Notes under the pieces: generated by a model
What the model saw: only the letters and a program-made list of their open reading frames with translations
Told to the model about the DNA's origin: nothing
Databases searched by the model: none
Program-made: the position numbers and the translations under genes
Assembly (NCBI GenBank): GCA_951828515.1
Contig: OX639992.1
Span: forward strand, 2,146,217-2,210,216
From: an uncultured Poribacteria bacterium
Lineage (GTDB): Bacteria; Poribacteria; WGA-4E; WGA-3G
DNA length: 64,000 nucleotides
Direction of reading: 5' to 3'
Shown here: one piece after another, positions 3,822 to 44,822 of the stretch
Layout of the letters: each line of letters starts with the position of its first letter
How positions within the stretch are numbered: the stretch's first letter is position 1

Positions 3822-4053
3822 CTTTTGGATGAACGGCACACGGCGTGTGTCTACTACTTTATTTCGTGGACGGCAGAACGGAGTCTGCCTACTACTTTAT
3901 TTCGTGGACGGCAGAACGGAGTCTGCCTACTACTTTATTTCGTGGACGGCAGAACGGAGTCTGCCTACTACTTTATTTCGTGGACGGCAGAACGGAGTCT
4001 GCCTACTACTTTATTTCGTGGACGGCAGAACGGAGTCTGCCTACTACTGTAAC
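3822..4053. repeat. Tandem array of 5 perfect 38-bp units (CTACTACTTTATTTCGTGGACGGCAGAACGGAGTCTGC) plus degenerate flanking copies. Each unit contains the hairpin GGCAGA-ACGGAG-TCTGCC.
   Basis: Direct reading. Full units begin at 3851, 3889, 3927, 3965 and 4003. There are no spacers, so this is not a CRISPR array. Confidence 0.9.
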
Positions 4054-5039
4054 ATAAAGCGGACGGTTCCAGAGAAGGTTTCATCAGGCGCGAGCACAAT
4101 CACGCCTGCAGGAATACCCCTTGCTTCTAAATTGATGGCATCCGTCGGGCAGGTGTAAGGCTCAAAACAGATAGAATCCCTATCAGGCGGTGTATAGACA
4201 ACAAGCTCCCTGAACTGTGCGTCCGATTCCATCACCATGCCGTAGCCGGTATCTTTATTTTCAATGAGACAGCGACTGACCCCATCAACCAATTGAACGT
4301 CCGTGAAAACATGGTCGAGCTTCAGTTTCGCGAAGGGTTGTCCATTCCGCAGATCCAGCGTGTCAGCAACATCGTGTTGTGTACCAGTTGGCACGAGGAC
4401 CTCGTCCAATTCCCAATACTTCGCAGCAGGTACGGTAATTATCGCTTCGGCGGCATTCGCCTCGGTGCCGAGATCTACGCTAAAATAGGGGTGGATACCG
4501 AACCCAACAGGCATATTCCGATCGCCCGTATTCTTAATAGCAATCCCCATCGTTAACACAGCATCTTTGAGCGTATAGGTAATTTCAATCCTAAAAGGAA
4601 ACGGATATTGACGACCGACCTCGGGAAAATCTTGAGAATTCAGTGAGCATACGAGTGTTGCCCCGTTTTCATCGGCGACATGGTTCTCGACCTGATACGG
4701 GAGATTCAACAACAAACCGTGGATTGTTGTTGGAGAGTCGGGTGCCTTGTCAAACTGATAGGTTTCCTCCTCAAATTGCCACGTGCCGTTCCGAATCCGA
4801 TTGGGGAAAGGAAACAGAATCGGATTGCCGTAAGCGGTCGGACGTTCCTCCAAAGTGGCGAGGTCCGACGGAGCATCTATCAGGTTCAACCAAGTATCCC
4901 CATCTGCGACTTTGAAGGCGTAGCAGTTATTACCAAGTGCAGGCACAATCTCAGCGACGGCTTTTTCATCTTGCTGGATGTAGTAAACTTGAAAACCTTC
5001 AATCGTCTTTACTGCTACTGAATACGTTGTATGCGCCAT
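4044..5039 (-). CDS. Aldose 1-epimerase (galactose mutarotase-like) family protein
   Basis: GFGIHPYF and surrounding mutarotase-fold motifs. Start reassigned to MAHTTY (ATG 5039, SD GGGGAG), because the longer ORF N-terminus is encoded by a repeated leader element. Confidence 0.65.
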   Translation of the reverse strand: MAHTTYSVAVKTIEGFQVYYIQQDEKAVAEIVPALGNNCYAFKVADGDTWLNLIDAPSDLATLEERPTAYGNPILFPFPNRIRNGTWQFEEETYQFDKAPDSPTTIHGLLLNLPYQVENHVADENGATLVCSLNSQDFPEVGRQYPFPFRIEITYTLKDAVLTMGIAIKNTGDRNMPVGFGIHPYFSVDLGTEANAAEAIITVPAAKYWELDEVLVPTGTQHDVADTLDLRNGQPFAKLKLDHVFTDVQLVDGVSRCLIENKDTGYGMVMESDAQFRELVVYTPPDRDSICFEPYTCPTDAINLEARGIPAGVIVLAPDETFSGTVRFMLQ

Positions 5040-5958: not shown

Positions 5959-7290
5959 TTAATACCGCGCCCATTGCCATAATTGCCTCAAGGTGGGACG
6001 TTTGCCATACATCAGAATCCCAACCCGATAGATTTTCCCGCTGATAAGTGTAACGATCAACACAGTCGCGCACATCAACAAGATGTTCAGCAAAATTTCC
6101 CACAAAGGCGGCATTAGCACGTTGATGCGCATAAACATAAGTATCGGCGAGAAAAATGGGACGTGAGAAAGCAGCACACTGACTATCGAATCGGGGATTC
6201 TAAATAATTGGAACATCAGGACGAACGGAACAACGATGAGCATGGTGAGTGGTACGCCCGTTTGCTGTGCCTCTTCTTCACTGCTGCAAATCGCACCGAC
6301 AACGGCATAAAGCGTTGAATACATGAAGAAACCGATAATAAAATAGATGAAGAAATAGGCAAGCATTTCGGCACTACTCGCTTTGACGGTCTCAATTACT
6401 TGGATGAGCTGTATCGGTAGGCTATCAATGCCAAAGATGCTGAGCAGCGGTTCTATATTCATGAACAGCAGTACACCAAATACCACCCAGATAGCGAACA
6501 TTGTTAAACAGACAGAGCACACGCCAACGAGTTTACCGAGTAGGAGTTGGTGCGGTTTAATCGATGAAATAATAACCTCAACGATTCGGGTCGTTTTTTC
6601 TTCAAGCACACTCCGCATGATGGAGTTGGCGTAGATGAGGACAAACATGTAAAGCACGAAAACAAGAATATATCCGAGTCCAATCCGCGCACCAGTCTCT
6701 ATAGGGCTTTCAACCTCCGCACTGCCATCCTTCTCCCTACTGCTTTTAATAGCGTAAGCGTTGAATCTGACGGAGCGCATCAGTTGACTGACTTCGCTCC
6801 GAGAATAACCACTTTCAGCAAACCGTCTGTCGCGGACAATGTCTGAAATGATCCGGCGGAGTGCCCTTTGTATCTCAAAATTCGTTGCTGCTCTGGCATA
6901 GAACCGAACCTCCCCGTTGGCAAAAACATCATTCGGGATTTCAAGATAGGCGTAGAGATCTTTTGTGTTGACGCGTTCTCGGAGTGCGGTTCTTTCTTCC
7001 TCTGTTGTAGCAGCCTCCTCATGGAGTTGATAGACGAGTTCCCCTTTACGTTGAAAGGTCGAATGCCCTGAGATAGCTGCTTGCATCTCTGTAAATATCT
7101 CGCCCGTCTCATCAATAACTGCGAGTTTTCTCATCTCTTTGGTTCTGTCCTCCATGATTGCGAGAAAACTGGACAATAACACTAACCCGCACATCAACAC
7201 CGGCATGAGAAACAAGGAAGCAAGAAACCCCTTAGATTTAACCCGCGTCATGTATTCACGCTTAATGACGGTAACAATTTTATTCGGCAT
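5959..7290 (-). CDS. ABC-2 family exporter permease (NatB-like)
   Basis: About 6 TM helices in the C-terminal half with a large N-terminal extracytoplasmic domain. Sits immediately downstream of the ATPase and is trimmed to MPNKIV to avoid a long overlap. Confidence 0.55.
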   Translation of the reverse strand: MPNKIVTVIKREYMTRVKSKGFLASLFLMPVLMCGLVLLSSFLAIMEDRTKEMRKLAVIDETGEIFTEMQAAISGHSTFQRKGELVYQLHEEAATTEEERTALRERVNTKDLYAYLEIPNDVFANGEVRFYARAATNFEIQRALRRIISDIVRDRRFAESGYSRSEVSQLMRSVRFNAYAIKSSREKDGSAEVESPIETGARIGLGYILVFVLYMFVLIYANSIMRSVLEEKTTRIVEVIISSIKPHQLLLGKLVGVCSVCLTMFAIWVVFGVLLFMNIEPLLSIFGIDSLPIQLIQVIETVKASSAEMLAYFFIYFIIGFFMYSTLYAVVGAICSSEEEAQQTGVPLTMLIVVPFVLMFQLFRIPDSIVSVLLSHVPFFSPILMFMRINVLMPPLWEILLNILLMCATVLIVTLISGKIYRVGILMYGKRPTLRQLWQWARY

Positions 7291-13246: not shown

Positions 13247-13541
13247 AATCAGTTCCCCCTTTTTGAGGCATTCTACCAGAAAAGGAATCTTAAGTCAAAC
13301 GTTTGGTGGTGCATTTCAGAAGCATTCAGTTATCAGTGGTCAGCAGTCAGTAGCCCCTTGTGACAGTCGCAAACGTCCTCAATGACCACAACTGCTCTTT
13401 ACCGAAGGCTGATAACCGATACCCAATACAGCGATAAAAATGTTGACACGAGATTACGCATCGCATATAATTCGCATGTTCAGTTGTCGGCGCGTGTTGG
13501 ACACGCGTGAATCACGAGGGGCATATAAGGAGGCTTACTTC

Positions 13542-29318: not shown

Positions 29319-29969
29319 CTATAGTAGATAAATGAAGGTGAAAACCATAATCCAGATAAGATCAACGAAGTGCCAATAGAGCCCGACGATTTCTACCTCA
29401 TGGTTAAATTCAGCCGTATATCTACCGCGTAAGCCGTGGATTAAAATAACAATGAGGTAAATAACACCACCGGTCACGTGCATCCCGTGGAAACCCGTGA
29501 TGGCGTAGAAAGTGGGACCAAAAAGCGTTGAGCCACTAACTGCAGCACCCGACAACCCGTGGTCGGGAATACCCGTAAGTGTCAACCCGTGGTGAATCAG
29601 ATGATACCATTCATAAGCCTGTAGCCCAAGAAAGATTATGCCTCCCCCGATCGTCAATCCAAGGAACATGCACATGCGTGAGACATTGCCGTTCTGAATC
29701 GACTCCAGTGCTTTCACCATCGTGACACTGCTGCATATCAACAGGAATGTCATAAACGCGGTTAGCTCAATGCCAAGAATCTCAGTTGGCGGAACCCAAC
29801 CGATTGCGCCTGCACCTGCTCGGATAGCGGCATAAGCTGCCAACAAGGCACCAAACGACATGGTGTCCCCGACAAGGAAAACCCACATACCGAGCTTACC
29901 AAGACTGTCCGGTGTCAGCGAAGGCTCATATACGTCTTCAGTATGATCTAAAGTGGTAGCGTGTTCCAC
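29319..29969 (-). CDS. coxC: Cytochrome c oxidase subunit III
   Basis: Five to seven TM helices and heme-copper subunit III-like motifs (HGLT, HVTGG, HFVD). Confidence 0.75.
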   Translation of the reverse strand: MEHATTLDHTEDVYEPSLTPDSLGKLGMWVFLVGDTMSFGALLAAYAAIRAGAGAIGWVPPTEILGIELTAFMTFLLICSSVTMVKALESIQNGNVSRMCMFLGLTIGGGIIFLGLQAYEWYHLIHHGLTLTGIPDHGLSGAAVSGSTLFGPTFYAITGFHGMHVTGGVIYLIVILIHGLRGRYTAEFNHEVEIVGLYWHFVDLIWIMVFTFIYLL

Positions 29970-30025
29970 TATATCTAACTCCTTTCCGTTTTAAGAGTTG
30001 TCAGCTGTCAGTACGGGTGCTATGC

Positions 30026-30115
30026 ACCCTTTCAGTTATCAGTTAAGAGGTTTTCGTTTAACAAAAGCCTCTTTTAACCGACTACCGATGACCGATAACC
30101 GATAACCATTCCAAT
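30026..30115. repeat. Hairpin repeat element (CAGTTATCAG ... AAGAGGTTTTCGTTTAACAAAAGCCTCTT ... CCGATAACCGATAACC). It lies in the same orientation as the copy at 31598-31690.
   Basis: Direct reading. Encodes the C-terminus of ORF 30039-30320. Confidence 0.7.
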
Positions 30116-30317
30116 TTAAGAAAATCGTGCCGCCGATGAGACCGAAAACCGTAAACGGCATCGCCATCAGAAAAAGGACACTCCAATTAAAACCTTTAGC
30201 GATCGGCTCATCAAGTTCTTTACAGCCTGGACATGCCTCAACGGACATCGGAACTATAAATATGACGAGTACCAAGATGGCAGCCCATACAGCATTTGTA
30301 TAAAACGATTTGCTCAT
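30039..30317 (-). CDS. Small membrane protein (2 TM, CPGC motif); C-terminal 20 aa encoded by a repeat element
   Basis: Hydrophobic helices. ATG at 30317. Confidence 0.35.
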   Translation of the reverse strand: MSKSFYTNAVWAAILVLVIFIVPMSVEACPGCKELDEPIAKGFNWSVLFLMAMPFTVFGLIGGTIFLNWNGYRLSVIGSRLKEAFVKRKPLN

Positions 30318-30346
30318 CAAAGTATTCGGGCAGGATACCCCTTGCT

Positions 30347-31372
30347 TTAGCTCGGGGAGGAATGCCCGCTCCTATAATTAAAGTTTAGTTTTGTTAGAAC
30401 TTTGAAGTCCATTCGTTTGGCACTTGTTGTGAGTCGTTTTCCATCTAAACTGTAGAGAGCAAACAATCCTTTGGCGTTGATCCCTGCTAATCTTGTGAAT
30501 CCGTATTTGATATGCTTAACAAGTGTGTTCTTTATCAACCCCTCACAGAGCACAGTGCCGCCATATTTTGAACGAACACCCCCCTTTTTGTATTGTTCTC
30601 TATGCAGACTACGTCTCGCTATAGGTATCGGTGATATACAGAATAGGTCTGTATTCTCCAAAATAGGCCCGCCAATTGTATAATAAGCAAGACACCAAGA
30701 ATCTACACAATGCGCCTCAAAAGCGTCAGAGAGTTTCTTTGACGACTTCCTGAGACCGAGGCGATCCCGTATCTCTTTCGTCTCCCACCCTTGAAGCGTT
30801 AGGAGTTCCCACCGCTTTTTGACTTCATCATAGAACCATTGCTTACCGACTTCCAAAGGACTAAATGACGTATTCCATTTCTTGGCACTCTTGAGAGTTC
30901 TTGCTTTGATGTCCTCAACGCATACATGCGTCACAGGGAACAGTTTTGACAGCCACTCAAGGATGCGAAGTTTCCAGTCCCAACGTGCGCGTGTGCCAGC
31001 AGGAATACGCGCTTTATTCAAAAGTCGGTTTGTTCGGTTCTTGCGATTCGGACACTTCCGTGAACGTCTACCTCTACGCAACTCACACCGCTTTTCAACT
31101 TTCTTTCCAACTTTACTATGGGCATCGGCTTGCACATTTAAGTAGGTATGTGCTTTGGATTTGACAGTAAAGCCTTCCTTTTTGCTGCCCGGATCAACAC
31201 CGACAGCGATTTCTTGTGTTTCCCGTGCTACAGGCTCTTTGTTGAGGCGGATACAATAGATACCATTATCAAAATAGGGAGTTGCCTGACCGCGCTTTAC
31301 AAGTTTCCTTGCCCGCGCAGCGTGCATAGGCATCAGTTGTTGTCCGTCTTTGGTCTTAACAGGCACAAACAT
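30347..31372 (-). CDS. isrB: IscB-family RNA-guided nuclease lacking an HNH domain (IsrB-like, OMEGA system)
   Basis: N-terminal PLMP/RRXRR domain (KDGQQLMPMHAARARKLVKRGQA...IYCIRL). RuvC-I IAVGVDPGSKKEGFTV. Arg-rich bridge helix RRGRRSRKCPNRKNRTNR. RuvC-II VCVEDIKA. RuvC-III EAHCVDSWCLAYY. No CxxC..H..N..H HNH motif. The 341-aa length matches IsrB. Confidence 0.6.
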   Translation of the reverse strand: MFVPVKTKDGQQLMPMHAARARKLVKRGQATPYFDNGIYCIRLNKEPVARETQEIAVGVDPGSKKEGFTVKSKAHTYLNVQADAHSKVGKKVEKRCELRRGRRSRKCPNRKNRTNRLLNKARIPAGTRARWDWKLRILEWLSKLFPVTHVCVEDIKARTLKSAKKWNTSFSPLEVGKQWFYDEVKKRWELLTLQGWETKEIRDRLGLRKSSKKLSDAFEAHCVDSWCLAYYTIGGPILENTDLFCISPIPIARRSLHREQYKKGGVRSKYGGTVLCEGLIKNTLVKHIKYGFTRLAGINAKGLFALYSLDGKRLTTSAKRMDFKVLTKLNFNYRSGHSSPS

Positions 31373-31690
31373 AAGTTTGTATTCTCCTTTTCAGGGTATA
31401 TGTTTCCCCATCCAGATCATAGTATCCAAGAAGAATCAGACTTGGGGAGCATCCGAAACGTTGTTCTAACTGCCACGTCAAGATACTACGATATATTACT
31501 GTAGTCAACCGTTTAACTTGTGGAGTGGACGTTTGGCGGACGCTTCGCACAGGTCCCCCGAATTTATTCGGGGGTTATTGACTTAACACTTCCTTTTTAT
31601 AGGTGTCAGTGGTCAGTTTTCAGTTAAAGAGGACTCTGGTTCAACGGATCTGCCTTTTAACCGACTCCTGATAACCGATAACCAACAACC
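31373..31690 (-). ncRNA. Candidate omegaRNA region of the IsrB element
   Basis: A 318-bp non-coding stretch immediately 5' of isrB on the same strand. Contains a strong hairpin CCCCCGAATTTATTCGGGGG (31554-31573) and a repeat-element hairpin at the distal end. Placement is by analogy to known IsrB loci. Confidence 0.35.
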
Positions 31691-31691
31691 A

Positions 31692-32270
31692 TTAAAAGAG
31701 ATACACCAACACATAGAGAATTGGCCAGAGGGCGACAACAAAAATCCAGTAGATAGTACAAGTATCAATGCCGACGTAACCTTCGGCTGAGAAACGACCC
31801 GCCATCGCCATCCCAAAAACTATAAATAGCCAGATAACAGCACTCAGCACGTGAACGGCATGGCATCCGATGAGTACATAAAAGATACCACCATAGACAC
31901 CAGATTGGAGGGTAAGCCCATTGCGAATCAACTGTATCCATTCGCTTCCCTGTACGCCGAGGAAGAGTAAGCCAAGTCCTCCTGTAAGCAACAACCAATT
32001 GCGGAGTTGCTTCAGTTGGTCCTTCTGAATTGCGCGGCGTGCTTGAAACATCGTGTAGCCGCTCAATAGGAGAAGCACAGTGTTGATGCCGGTTACCGCG
32101 CGTGGCAGTTCAATCCCGATATGCGATGGTGGGGGCCAGGTGACATTTCCCACTCGAAAGACGAGAAATGTACCGATGAGCCCTGAAAACAGCATCGTCT
32201 CTGCACCCAGCAGGACTAATATTCCCAATCGTGCGTTGCTCAAGGGTGAACGTTGGTGCATTTCTGCCAT
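31692..32270 (-). CDS. Second cytochrome c oxidase subunit III-like protein
   Basis: Five TM helices and subunit III-like His pattern (HAVHVLS). Confidence 0.65.
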   Translation of the reverse strand: MAEMHQRSPLSNARLGILVLLGAETMLFSGLIGTFLVFRVGNVTWPPPSHIGIELPRAVTGINTVLLLLSGYTMFQARRAIQKDQLKQLRNWLLLTGGLGLLFLGVQGSEWIQLIRNGLTLQSGVYGGIFYVLIGCHAVHVLSAVIWLFIVFGMAMAGRFSAEGYVGIDTCTIYWIFVVALWPILYVLVYLF

Positions 32271-32512
32271 CAGTCACGCACCCTATTTCTTACAATCCGA
32301 AGAACAATCTCAACGACCGCGGCGATAACCAGTAGTAGTCCGATAACACCCAAAACAGGGACGACCAGACTCTTGATGACACTTTCAACAGACTGAGGTG
32401 CTTTGCTGCCTGTAATAATTGCAATCGTTACGACGACAAACAATCCTGCAAACAGTAGACACAAAATGAGTCCGAGGCGGCGGTTTTGCTTGCGGTGTTC
32501 TGGCGTGTTCAT
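32270..32512 (-). CDS. Small membrane protein (possible oxidase subunit IV-like)
   Basis: 80 aa with 2 TM helices. The start overlaps the coxIII-like gene by 4 bp. Confidence 0.3.
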   Translation of the reverse strand: MNTPEHRKQNRRLGLILCLLFAGLFVVVTIAIITGSKAPQSVESVIKSLVVPVLGVIGLLLVIAAVVEIVLRIVRNRVRD

Positions 32513-40169: not shown

Positions 40170-40395
40170 CCTTTTTAATAGTTATCAGTTATCGGTTTTA
40201 ACCATCAACTCGTGCTTTAACATTTATAACAGAGGCGAGTTGATGGTTAAAGTTTTCAGTTAAAGCACTTTTTGATTCATCTACTGAACGTTGATAGCTG
40301 AAGGTTCATTATTAATTATCAGTTATTGGTTATCAGTTTTCAGTTAAAATCCCTTTTGATGCGTCTCAGGTATCTCTTGAACTGAAGACCAACAA
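40170..40395. repeat. Large hairpin-rich repeat element between gene 40401-42110 (stop) and the cupredoxin gene (start)
   Basis: GTTATCAGTTATCGGTTTTAACCATCAACTCG..CGAGTTGATGGTTAAAG and CAGTTATTGGTTATCAGTTTTCAGTTAAAATCCCTTTTGA. Confidence 0.6.
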
Positions 40396-42889: not shown

Positions 42890-42890
42890 C

Positions 42891-43334
42891 TTTTAATATT
42901 ACCTTGCGGTTCGGTTAGGCAGGTTTCATGAATAAAGTGCCTTTACGTATATCCGTCCTCCATTACATTACGGACTATGGCTTAGAGGGTTATCGGTTGT
43001 CAGGCACCGGTTTTTTATTCCGCCGGAATTGCCTCCGCTTTTAATATTACCTTGCGGTTCGGTTAGGCAGGTTTCATGAATAAAGTGCCTTTACGTATAT
43101 CCGTCCTCCATTACATTACGGACTATGGTTTAGAGGGTTATCGGTTGTCAGGCACCGGTTTTTTATTCCGCCGGAATTGCCTCCGCTTTTAATATTACCT
43201 TGCGGTTCGGTTAGGCAGGTTTCATGAATAAAGTGCCTTTACGTATATCCGTCCTCCATTACATTACGGACTATGGTTTAGAGGGTTATCGGTTGTCAGG
43301 CACCGGTTTTTTATTCCGCCGGAATTGCCTCCGC
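42891..43334. repeat. Three tandem copies of a 148-bp unit, each containing the leader-family head TTTTAATATTACCTTGCGG and core ATATCCGTCCTCCATTACATTACGGACTATGG
   Basis: Unit starts at 42891, 43039 and 43187. The last copy overlaps the 3' end of the upstream cytochrome gene. Confidence 0.85.
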
Positions 43335-44822
43335 TGCCCCTTCAGAAACTGCTTCCGCTGTTGCCCCCGTAAGCGTGCTTAAGAAAGAGAGCAAATTGCT
43401 CATATCCGACACTGATAACAGTAGCGGGAAGTTTTCGGGCATCGGCGATGTAACGAATAATTTTTTGCCAGAGGCACGGGTAAAGGTGGCTTCCTCAAGA
43501 TCAAAAAAGGGATCAAATACCTCTTCACTCCCATCAACCATTAAGACAATCTCGTCGTCCATCGTGCCTGAAACGTAGTCGCCAACAATTTCATCGCCAT
43601 CAAAAGTGAGAACAGTCATCTGGCTTTTTACATCTGTCTTAGAAAATGTCCGATCTTCGCCGCCGACTTTTAGCGTTACAGTGTCTTCGGTTTCGGAAAC
43701 AATTTCACCGCTCACCGGAGCATCCGCATCCGCAGGCGTTAGCGTCAATGTGAAATAACCCCTCACTTGTAGATTCGTGAGATCCTCAATCGGCTCGTCA
43801 TCAAGTTCGCTCAATAAGAGGGTATGCTCCTCTTCCACGCCATCTGCCGTTTTGGTTCGGACGACAATCTGTTCTGTATCCTGCGAGACAAGCGTTCCCT
43901 GCAAGGTCGTTCCATTGGCACGGACGGTAACGGCACCATAACCGCTTACAATCTGCGCACTCGGTTTCAGGACCGATTCCTCAAGATACCGCATATCGTT
44001 AAAAGCAGCAATTTCAGAGAGGTCTGGTGCAGTGACGACTTCAAAATCTGTACTCGCCTCACCCGTAGCTGGACTTTCTATACCTATCACAGCGTGGCAC
44101 GAGATACACGCCGCAGTCACAAACACCTTTTTGCCGAGTTCTGGATCACCCGTAAGCACGGGTGGGAGTGCCGCTGCCATTGTCCCTGCATCTGCCCGAT
44201 CTATCGGTTCATTAAAGGGTGTCGGATCGATTTCCCCCCCTTGGCTCTGCAGATAGGCAATAACGGCTTCAATTTCCAGTTTTGAGAGAGCAATGGGAGC
44301 CTTCCAAATTTCTGGCATAATCTTGCCGTATCCGGGCACAAGATACTTAGCCGGCTCGTAGAGCGATTCGATGAGATAGGTTTTCGCGTCCGTGCCGGGT
44401 ACGCGACTTGCGGCGTTAATGCCAATGTCCGTGAGATCAGGACATCTCCCTTTCGGTGCAGAGGTATCGACGGTATGGCACGCGCTACACTGCCCTTTTC
44501 CGTTAAACACCAAGGCTCCCTGCTCAGCGACAGCGTCTGGATCGCTCCAATCCAGCTCAGTCAGATTCACCGCTGTGGAACTTTCTGGGACAAGCCCCGC
44601 GACAAAGGCGTAAAACCATATCACGGCAAGCGAAAACGTCAACAACTTCATGACGTTCGACCACAAAACGATATTTACGATTACCGAGATGAGAAACCAG
44701 ACCGACCACGGTAGCAAGTTCTCCGAAGCAATCGGAAACGCGGACGCCCCTGCAATATAGGCGATGAAACTTACCACCATTAAGATGAGACTCGCAATTT
44801 TAATGAGCGTATTTCTTGACAT
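43311..44822 (-). CDS. Membrane-anchored di-heme cytochrome c
   Basis: Three N-terminal TM helices. CSACH and CISCH. Confidence 0.65.
   Translation of the reverse strand: MSRNTLIKIASLILMVVSFIAYIAGASAFPIASENLLPWSVWFLISVIVNIVLWSNVMKLLTFSLAVIWFYAFVAGLVPESSTAVNLTELDWSDPDAVAEQGALVFNGKGQCSACHTVDTSAPKGRCPDLTDIGINAASRVPGTDAKTYLIESLYEPAKYLVPGYGKIMPEIWKAPIALSKLEIEAVIAYLQSQGGEIDPTPFNEPIDRADAGTMAAALPPVLTGDPELGKKVFVTAACISCHAVIGIESPATGEASTDFEVVTAPDLSEIAAFNDMRYLEESVLKPSAQIVSGYGAVTVRANGTTLQGTLVSQDTEQIVVRTKTADGVEEEHTLLLSELDDEPIEDLTNLQVRGYFTLTLTPADADAPVSGEIVSETEDTVTLKVGGEDRTFSKTDVKSQMTVLTFDGDEIVGDYVSGTMDDEIVLMVDGSEEVFDPFFDLEEATFTRASGKKLFVTSPMPENFPLLLSVSDMSNLLSFLSTLTGATAEAVSEGAAEAIPAE

Follow-up and report, generated by a model that had tools for sequence, protein, structure and literature searches.

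The IsrB proteins, HNH-less members of the IscB family, were reportedly first described by Altae-Tran et al. in 2021. A structured RNA termed HEARO (RF02033) was later recognised as the omegaRNA of IscB. Among the described systems, DtIsrB with its omegaRNA from Desulfovirgula thermocuniculi (PDB 8DMB; Hirano et al. 2022, PMC9581776) and the iscB elements of the IS200/IS605 family in Geobacillus stearothermophilus (Meers et al. 2023, bioRxiv 10.1101/2023.03.14.532601) provide the closest comparisons for the locus described here. The locus is a 1,265-bp segment with an isrB gene and its upstream RNA, found inside a cytochrome oxidase (cox) operon of an uncultured Poribacteria bacterium (assembly GCA_951828515.1, contig OX639992.1). 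The whole stretch of DNA that was analysed, positions 2,146,217 to 2,210,216 of this contig (64 kb), is called the window below, and all coordinates refer to it. Very probably, the segment is a non-autonomous OMEGA element of the IS200/IS605 type, consisting of an IsrB nickase and an omegaRNA, that was inserted 5' of an ATGA in the lineage of this genome.

IsrB acts with an omegaRNA of ~300 nt that carries the guide at its 5' end, and nicks the non-target strand beside an NTGA target-adjacent motif (TAM) (PMC9581776). The Poribacteria protein resembles DtIsrB in its size (~340-350 aa), in the absence of HNH, and in the order of its parts, namely PLMP, RuvC-I, an Arg-rich bridge helix, RuvC-II, RuvC-III and a C-terminal TAM-interacting domain. 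In both systems the omegaRNA is located directly upstream of the gene and shares its strand, and the Shine-Dalgarno sequence is part of the terminal hairpin of this RNA (PMC9581776). The ATGA that flanks the window element fits the published NTGA. In contrast to DtIsrB, to which it is 28% identical (Foldseek, 8dmb), the Poribacteria protein has QLMP instead of PLMP, and its scaffold is ~209 nt rather than 262 nt long. Its host is presumably a mesophilic symbiont of marine sponges and not a thermophile, and its activity is predicted from sequence.

In the IscB systems the transposon end gives rise to the scaffold and the guide is encoded by sequence beyond the element, so that the guide requires read-in transcription, and insertions are co-oriented with the upstream gene (bioRxiv 10.1101/2023.03.14.532601). 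IscB and TnpA have the motif TTCAT in common; it is the TAM of GstIscB and corresponds to ATGAA on the strand of the nuclease. In addition, tnpA is found near only ~1.5% of the iscB genes (same source). The Poribacteria element is similarly non-autonomous, its scaffold starts at the element end with the guide coming from the flank, and it runs in the same direction as the upstream host gene, which allows the guide to be made by read-in transcription. The far-end motif is comparable to TTCAT, and guide plus motif reconstitute the empty donor joint. In contrast to the G. stearothermophilus enzyme, a double-strand cutter, the Poribacteria nuclease lacks HNH and is a predicted nickase; IsrB might bring about retention or homing by a nick instead of a double-strand break.

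IsrB, its omegaRNA, the logic of the TAM and read-in transcription have all been published (PMC9581776; bioRxiv 10.1101/2023.03.14.532601), and the present locus leaves the knowledge of how such systems work unchanged. New here is a fairly divergent IsrB with a shorter, ~209-nt scaffold in Poribacteria; a search of the papers available to us for Poribacteria together with IscB or IsrB found no report. The locus extends IsrB to these sponge symbionts, in which the family is large and diverse. It makes a textbook case of a natural OMEGA transposon, as both an occupied and a base-exact empty site are available and the guide, borders and putative TAM can be read from genomes. A 341-aa protein with a ~209-nt scaffold from a presumably mesophilic marine host could also be of interest as a compact nickase.

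The insertion into the cox operon

A search probed with the 192-aa COX3-family protein retrieved 55 cox operons, which come from different species of Poribacteria (individual fetched loci are given below as L004 and so on). The gene order, common to all of them, is an 80-aa gene, the 192-aa COX3-family gene (cox3a), a gene of a ~92-aa membrane protein, the 216-aa coxIII (cox3b) and cox4. The 92-aa gene is located between cox3a and cox3b in nearly all of these operons. None of the 55 contains isrB, hence the segment in the window is an insertion into the cox operon. The features of the insertion and its surroundings are as follows.

30318..31582, minus strand: complete inserted element, 1,265 bp, comprising omegaRNA scaffold, isrB and a 29-nt 3' end
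31374..31582, minus strand: omegaRNA scaffold, ~209 nt, directly 5' of isrB on the same strand
30347..31372, minus strand: isrB coding sequence, 341 aa
30318..30346, minus strand: last 29 nt of the element at its 3' end, AGCAAGGGGTATCCTGCCCGAATACTTTG, which include a small GG..CC hairpin
30314..30317, minus strand: ATGA, putative TAM and insertion-site motif; host sequence, its ATG being the start codon of the 92-aa gene
31583..31602, minus strand: putative guide segment CTATAAAAAGGAAGTGTTAA, host-derived flank 5' of the scaffold
30039..30317, minus strand: host gene of a 92-aa membrane protein with a CPGC motif, conserved in the Poribacteria cox operon
31692-32270: upstream neighbour, 192-aa COX3-family gene

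The closest relative, L004 (OZ243935.1), has flanks that are 94-96% identical and does not have the element. Its empty site reads ...GGAAGTGTTAA/ATGAACAAATCG, and the occupied site in the window reads ...GGAAGTGTTAA/GTCAATAACC...GAATACTTTG/ATGAGCAAATCG, with junctions marked by slashes. With a shorter 5' side the same junctions are ...AAAAAGGAAGTGTTAA/ATGAACAAATCG in L004 and ...AAAAAGGAAGTGTTAA/GTCAATAACCCCCG...GAATACTTTG/ATGAGCAAATCG in the window. The empty site is also base-exact in L005 and L027. Exact comparison of the occupied and empty sites reveals no target-site duplication, and the element has no terminal inverted repeats, its ends GTCAATAACC and GAATACTTTG not being inverted repeats of each other. 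These are hallmarks of an IS200/IS605-type element. The first inserted base (31582) coincides with position 1 of the RNA in the alignments to both HEARO and our own model R1, described below.

The first-pass annotation of this DNA had proposed an IsrB-type nuclease with an upstream omegaRNA inserted in a respiratory operon, and this core reading is supported: the protein by its homology to DtIsrB and the RNA by a HEARO-like match and covariation (both below), the insertion by the base-exact empty site. Its dimensions had to be changed: the insert is 30318-31582, and not a unit of ~1.35 kb at 30347-31700. The position given there, between the second coxIII-like gene and coxIII, is right as to the operon, but the downstream neighbour is the 92-aa gene and not coxIII directly.

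The element has the same orientation as the cox operon and stands between the Shine-Dalgarno sequence AAGGAAG of the 92-aa gene and the ATG start codon. In L001, a contig with an identical element, the call of the 92-aa gene begins 30 nt past the isrB stop. An essential respiratory operon thereby tolerates a 1.3-kb insertion that parts a gene from its ribosome-binding site. A scan of 29900-32400 for promoters and terminators returned counts at the level of shuffled sequence and no minus-strand terminator inside the element, which fits read-through into the cox genes that lie downstream.

The insertion is restricted to one strain cluster, and the window IsrB protein occurs on long metagenomic contigs of one ENA sample (ERZ18545484). 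We date the insertion as young from its absence in a relative with 94-96% identical flanks. No second copy of the element was found in the 64-kb window, either for the protein or for the RNA (model R1).

The borders recur in other copies. More than 3,000 related proteins of a uniform length of ~342 aa were retrieved, and several diverged paralogues per genome are present on single ~6-Mb contigs. Twelve independent Poribacteria copies are found in twelve different contexts, and the neighbours on both sides are mostly co-oriented with them. Conservation starts exactly at GTCAATAAC and stops at ...GAAxxTTG, as seen in eight and later in all twelve independent copies; the eleven copies other than that of the window measure 1,261-1,270 bp between the same landmarks. 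In every copy the conserved part opens with GTCAAT and closes with ...TTTG. The 3' terminal 29 nt are kept in all Poribacteria copies and are recognisable in L063, L064, L068, L069 and L074, whose IsrB proteins are 45-55% identical. Presumably a TnpA acting in trans recognises this end.

Two copies are found within genes. The copy in L094 (2596-4297) interrupts a GFO_IDH_MocA oxidoreductase gene and has ATAA at its flank instead of ATGA, and the copy in L098 (1826-3822) interrupts an ORF with DUF5060 and Laminin_G_3 domains. Thus the family also makes disruptive insertions. In L088, a 140-aa ORF (4251-4673) with a weak match to HTH_OrfB_IS605, the N-terminal domain of TnpB, is located 220 bp downstream of the IsrB copy, indicating that TnpB-type elements co-occur in these genomes.

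Other insertions occur near the 92-aa gene. In L022 (6799-10448; VXZK01000347.1) an unrelated insertion of ~3.6 kb is located between the 92-aa gene and coxIII, and L005 and L050 have ~0.4-0.6 kb of additional sequence at the same junction. The intergenic spot between these two genes seems to tolerate insertions repeatedly.

The IsrB protein and the upstream RNA

The 341-aa ORF contains the IscB motifs that had been read from it at first pass: QLMP at residues 12-15, VDPGS at 59, an Arg-rich stretch from R99, CVEDIK at 151 and HCVDS at 221. The corresponding domains are the PLMP domain, RuvC-I (D60), the bridge helix (~95-120), RuvC-II (E153), RuvC-III (H221/D224) and a C-terminal TAM-interacting region. 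The suggested profile search yielded RRXRR (PF14239) as the sole Pfam family matched (103.3 bits, E=1.8e-29, residues 3-157), and no HNH domain was detected in the protein with Pfam at E<=1. The NCBIfam IscB equivalog matches only at profile positions 3-157 of 314, with 83.8 bits against a cut-off of 175. This pattern is expected of a protein that has the IscB N-terminal half and lacks the HNH part.

Among all PDB chains the best match is DtIsrB 8DMB (phmmer, E=2.7e-32, 115 bits), which covers residues 3-317 of the query; IscB structures align with the first 110-170 residues only (E>=1e-9, <=41 bits). The residues D60, E153 and H221/D224 align with the VDPG, TED and H..D motifs of DtIsrB, and residues 95-120 (RCELRRGRRSRKCPNRKNRTNRLLNK) align with its bridge-helix segment RRNLRRARRYRKTPRR. 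An alignment of 30 homologues shows no variation at the catalytic D/E/H/D residues or at M14 and P15 of the xLMP motif. Comparison of the window copy with seven paralogues gives a ratio of nonsynonymous to synonymous substitution rates (dN/dS) of 0.04-0.21 (Nei-Gojobori; six values computable, dS being saturated for L059), hence the IsrB family is under purifying selection. By all these sequence characters the protein is an HNH-less IsrB of the IscB family, and the IsrB architecture assigned to it at first pass holds. It is predicted to introduce a nick into the non-target strand under omegaRNA guidance, for which the conserved ATGA flank is indirect support.

Between isrB and the 192-aa COX3-family gene there is an interval of 319 nt. 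A structured non-coding region had been noticed here, 5' of isrB and on the same strand, with the hairpin CCCCCGAATAAATTCGGGGG; we confirm both, the hairpin being located at 31555-31574. As a candidate omegaRNA the region is upheld by covariation and by a HEARO-like match, but at a length of ~209 nt (31374-31582). An omegaRNA of ~318 nt, as originally assumed, is ruled out, since both the conservation and the insertion border start at 31582. The scaffold begins with GUCAAUAA, followed by the stem-loop CCCCCGAAUAAAUUCGGGGG. Its terminal hairpin CCCUGAAAAGG, which is CCC-GNRA-GGG in relatives, sequesters the Shine-Dalgarno sequence of isrB.

The proposed covariance-model search of this region produced a full-length alignment with a low score. 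HEARO aligns end to end (model positions 1-211) at 31379-31582 on the minus strand, and scores 23.2 bits (E=0.067), where the gathering score is 83. At the gathering threshold, HEARO has no match in the whole 64-kb window. Similar full-length, sub-threshold matches (24-41 bits) are found directly upstream of six more distant IsrB homologues. The Poribacteria RNA shares with HEARO its position immediately 5' of an IscB-family ORF, the 5' enclosing helix GUCAA...UUGAC and the first CCCC/GGGG stem-loop. It differs in having a ~20-nt expansion of the second hairpin and a shorter 3' region.

Because HEARO gave only 23 bits, we built a covariance model of our own. Twelve upstream regions were aligned and folded with RNAalifold, and the model R1 was made from the alignment. 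The consensus has 43 pairs, 27 of them with compensatory changes. R1 matches 31374-31582 with 214 bits, the best score of all copies, and recovers nine homologue loci outside the training set (E=3e-9 to 5e-24). Across 21 distinct sequences, standard pairs occupy 88.4% of cells, compared with 36-48% when the partners are slid by 1-3 columns, and in 36 of the 49 pairs both partners have changed. Covariation reaches a score of 0.454 in the alignment and at most 0.105 in the slid controls, and the observed values were reached in none of 500 shuffles. Judging from this covariation, the upstream 209 nt are a conserved structured omegaRNA.

Guide, flanking motif and start codons

Conservation among the copies ends exactly at 31582, and the 5' flanks of different copies are unrelated to each other. 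The putative guide abuts this base (31583 to ~31602), and not 31690, where it had been placed at first. Its likely length is 16-20 nt, and AAGGAAG, the Shine-Dalgarno sequence of the 92-aa gene downstream, falls within it. The empty cox sites of L004, L027 and L052 contain the 16-nt guide followed by ATGA letter for letter. In the window the guide sequence occurs once, and there it is followed by GTCA, which is scaffold DNA, and not by ATGA. Consequently, the predicted ribonucleoprotein (RNP) would be directed against the empty allele and not against the locus that encodes it.

On the 3' side, 11 of the 12 independent Poribacteria copies are flanked by ATGA, the exception being the ATAA of L094. 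IsrB loci at 45-55% identity have ATGA or ATGG at the corresponding flank. Since ATGA is present in the empty site, it belongs to the target sequence and not to the element.

The mechanism that we propose is assembled from steps of the published IscB and IsrB work. Transcription of the cox operon would read into the element and produce an omegaRNA, in which the 5' 16-20 nt of host flank, ...AAAAAGGAAGTGTTAA, could act as the guide. The ~209-nt scaffold would bind IsrB, and the complex would recognise the uninterrupted allele by a guide match followed by ATGA. The RuvC site formed by D60/E153/H221/D224 would then place a nick in the vacant site's non-target strand, whereas the occupied locus would be spared because the guide match there adjoins GTCA and not the TAM. 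The lesion could promote recombinational re-copying of the element, either after excision by TnpA or in sister chromosomes without the element, and so lead to its retention and spread. Transposition would need a Y1 TnpA acting in trans and encoded elsewhere.

The flanking ATGA often coincides with a start codon. We defined an ATGA site as start-like if it opens an ORF of at least 85 codons and is preceded by at most 25 open codons. By this definition, six of the twelve reconstructed empty sites are start-like: the window site (30314-30317) and those of L003, L089, L099, L100 and L102. In all six the element is located between the Shine-Dalgarno sequence and the ATG of a co-oriented gene, and the guide is the host 5' untranslated region (UTR). 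In the same genomes 6.8% of 1,550 ATGA sites are start-like, which by our own arithmetic gives a binomial p of ~6e-5. Gene calls begin at the flanking ATG in L001, L089, L098 and L102; the ATG of L098 is an internal in-frame Met with 128 open codons upstream, and this locus is outside the six.

We speculate, tentatively and with more doubt than confidence, that IsrB elements are preferentially inserted or retained exactly between a ribosome-binding site and a co-oriented start codon, so that the ATG of the TAM is the start. The excess of start codons may instead reflect survivorship, gene-disrupting insertions having been purged. If the preference is real, such a position would supply read-in transcription for the guide, offer the host 5' UTR as the guide and leave coding sequences intact. 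This would be a 'safe-harbour' strategy written into the TAM, in which translation of the downstream gene might also be coupled to isrB. We found no earlier description of the pattern, and it may be new.

Alternative explanations and other features of the window

Several observations weigh against reading the segment as an active OMEGA element. No match to TnpA was found in the element, in the 64-kb window or in the fetched loci, by tblastn with an IS200 TnpA query, which is a weak test; the current mobility of the element is therefore a presumption. The other copies found are 75-88% identical and none is near-identical, and recent transposition bursts within this genome could not be demonstrated. 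On the RNA side, the 23.2-bit match leaves the scaffold outside HEARO by the curated criterion of Rfam, and the outer long-range GUCAA/UUGAC helix is the least supported part of the structure, being paired in 63.5% of the covariance-model alignment. We infer the production of the omegaRNA, its 5' end and the length of its guide, and take ATGA as the probable TAM from the flanks and from other enzymes. Finally, an AlphaFold2 model made with 30 close homologues has low confidence, with a predicted local distance difference test (pLDDT) score of 54, residues 280-325 reaching ~80-86. In a Foldseek search with this model 8dmb_P ranks first (E=9.7e-18, 28% identity) and IscB structures follow; given the poor model, we attach little weight to this result beyond the sequence match.

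The best surviving alternative is that the segment is an immobile relic, a stranded IsrB and omegaRNA cassette without a compatible TnpA, whose RNP has no function and which persists because it is tolerated. A relic would account for the missing TnpA match and for the divergence of the retrieved copies, which are not recent duplicates; the general rarity of tnpA near iscB genes (~1.5%; bioRxiv 10.1101/2023.03.14.532601) is in line with it as well. We regard it as unlikely, because the ORF is intact with all catalytic residues present, the omegaRNA has the best score of all copies on the family model (214 bits), and the insertion is young, being absent from the relative with 94-96% identical flanks. 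A functionless cassette also agrees poorly with the family dN/dS of 0.04-0.21 and with copies at many different sites.

Far less probable is a domesticated RNA-guided regulator, in which IsrB and its RNA were co-opted to tune the expression of the respiratory genes by binding DNA or RNA in the cox operon. Nuclease-dead repressors derived from TnpB are a precedent for such co-option, and the co-oriented location inside an essential operon, with a guide that is the ribosome-binding region of the next gene, could suit this role. However, the guide match at the own locus adjoins GTCA and not ATGA, so the copy in the chromosome is not a predicted target, and homologous copies are found beside unrelated genes. 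The presence of the insertion in one strain cluster and its absence from 55 related operons argue against a conserved host role; on this phyletic distribution and the intact catalytic residues the regulator was rejected.

That the protein is an IscB from which HNH was secondarily deleted, and not a member of the IsrB clade, is equally improbable: the NCBIfam IscB model and several IscB structures do match its N-terminal part, but its full-length best match is DtIsrB (115 bits over 3-317, at most 41 bits for any IscB), the more than 3,000 homologues share its length, and no deletion-like gap is seen where the 67 residues between E153 and H221 are aligned to DtIsrB.

Near the OMEGA element the window shows a mosaic patch of ~1.4 kb. 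Sister contigs L001 and L002 carry an identical element and are more than 99.7% identical to the window outside the patch. Between 28519 and 29934 of the window, corresponding to 7439-8854 of L001/L002, there are ~140 mismatches (~10%), compared with <0.3% elsewhere. The patch spans coxIII, coxIV and the start of the SCO gene. The window version resembles L004 and L005 (96-97%), and the version in the sister contigs is foreign, with a best match of 90.7% (L041). We found no evidence that IsrB caused the patch; ~380 bp of near-identical sequence separate the two, and the foreign version is in the sister contigs.

Two hairpin repeats had been taken to bracket the inserted unit.

31598..31693, minus strand: native intergenic hairpin repeat, outside the element, following the 192-aa COX3-family gene
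30026..30112, minus strand: second native hairpin repeat, located at the 92-aa gene's 3' end and likewise outside the element

The repeats do exist, sharing a 40-nt direct repeat of 88% identity (30071-30110 and 31654-31693), but they are native to the operon. The uninterrupted operon of L004 holds both of them (6578-6658 and 6896-6975), and the repeat of 31598-31693 has the same position in L004 and L005, whose operons are uninterrupted. Both repeats fold best as RNA of the transcribed minus strand, that of 31598-31693 with -29.3 kcal/mol (z=-2.5) and that of 30026-30112 with -25.5 kcal/mol (z=-3.8). Both are members of a dispersed family with the heptamer GGTTATC, which has 12 matches in the window against 0.28 expected. 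As ends of an insertion sequence they are therefore ruled out.

Members of the heptamer family are located at 13411, 30087-30107, 31670-31690, 40180-40341, 42988-43297 and 59629. They form RNA hairpins with G:U pairs on the transcribed strand of intergenic regions and resemble repetitive extragenic palindromic (REP) elements. In many Poribacteria, two copies flank the 92-aa cox gene. The window also contains two tandem repeats. At 3833-4048 a 38-bp unit is repeated 5.7 times head to tail with 97% identity; it has no spacers and hence is not a CRISPR array. At 42890-43335 a 148-bp unit is repeated 3.0 times with 99% identity, and each unit carries one heptamer motif.

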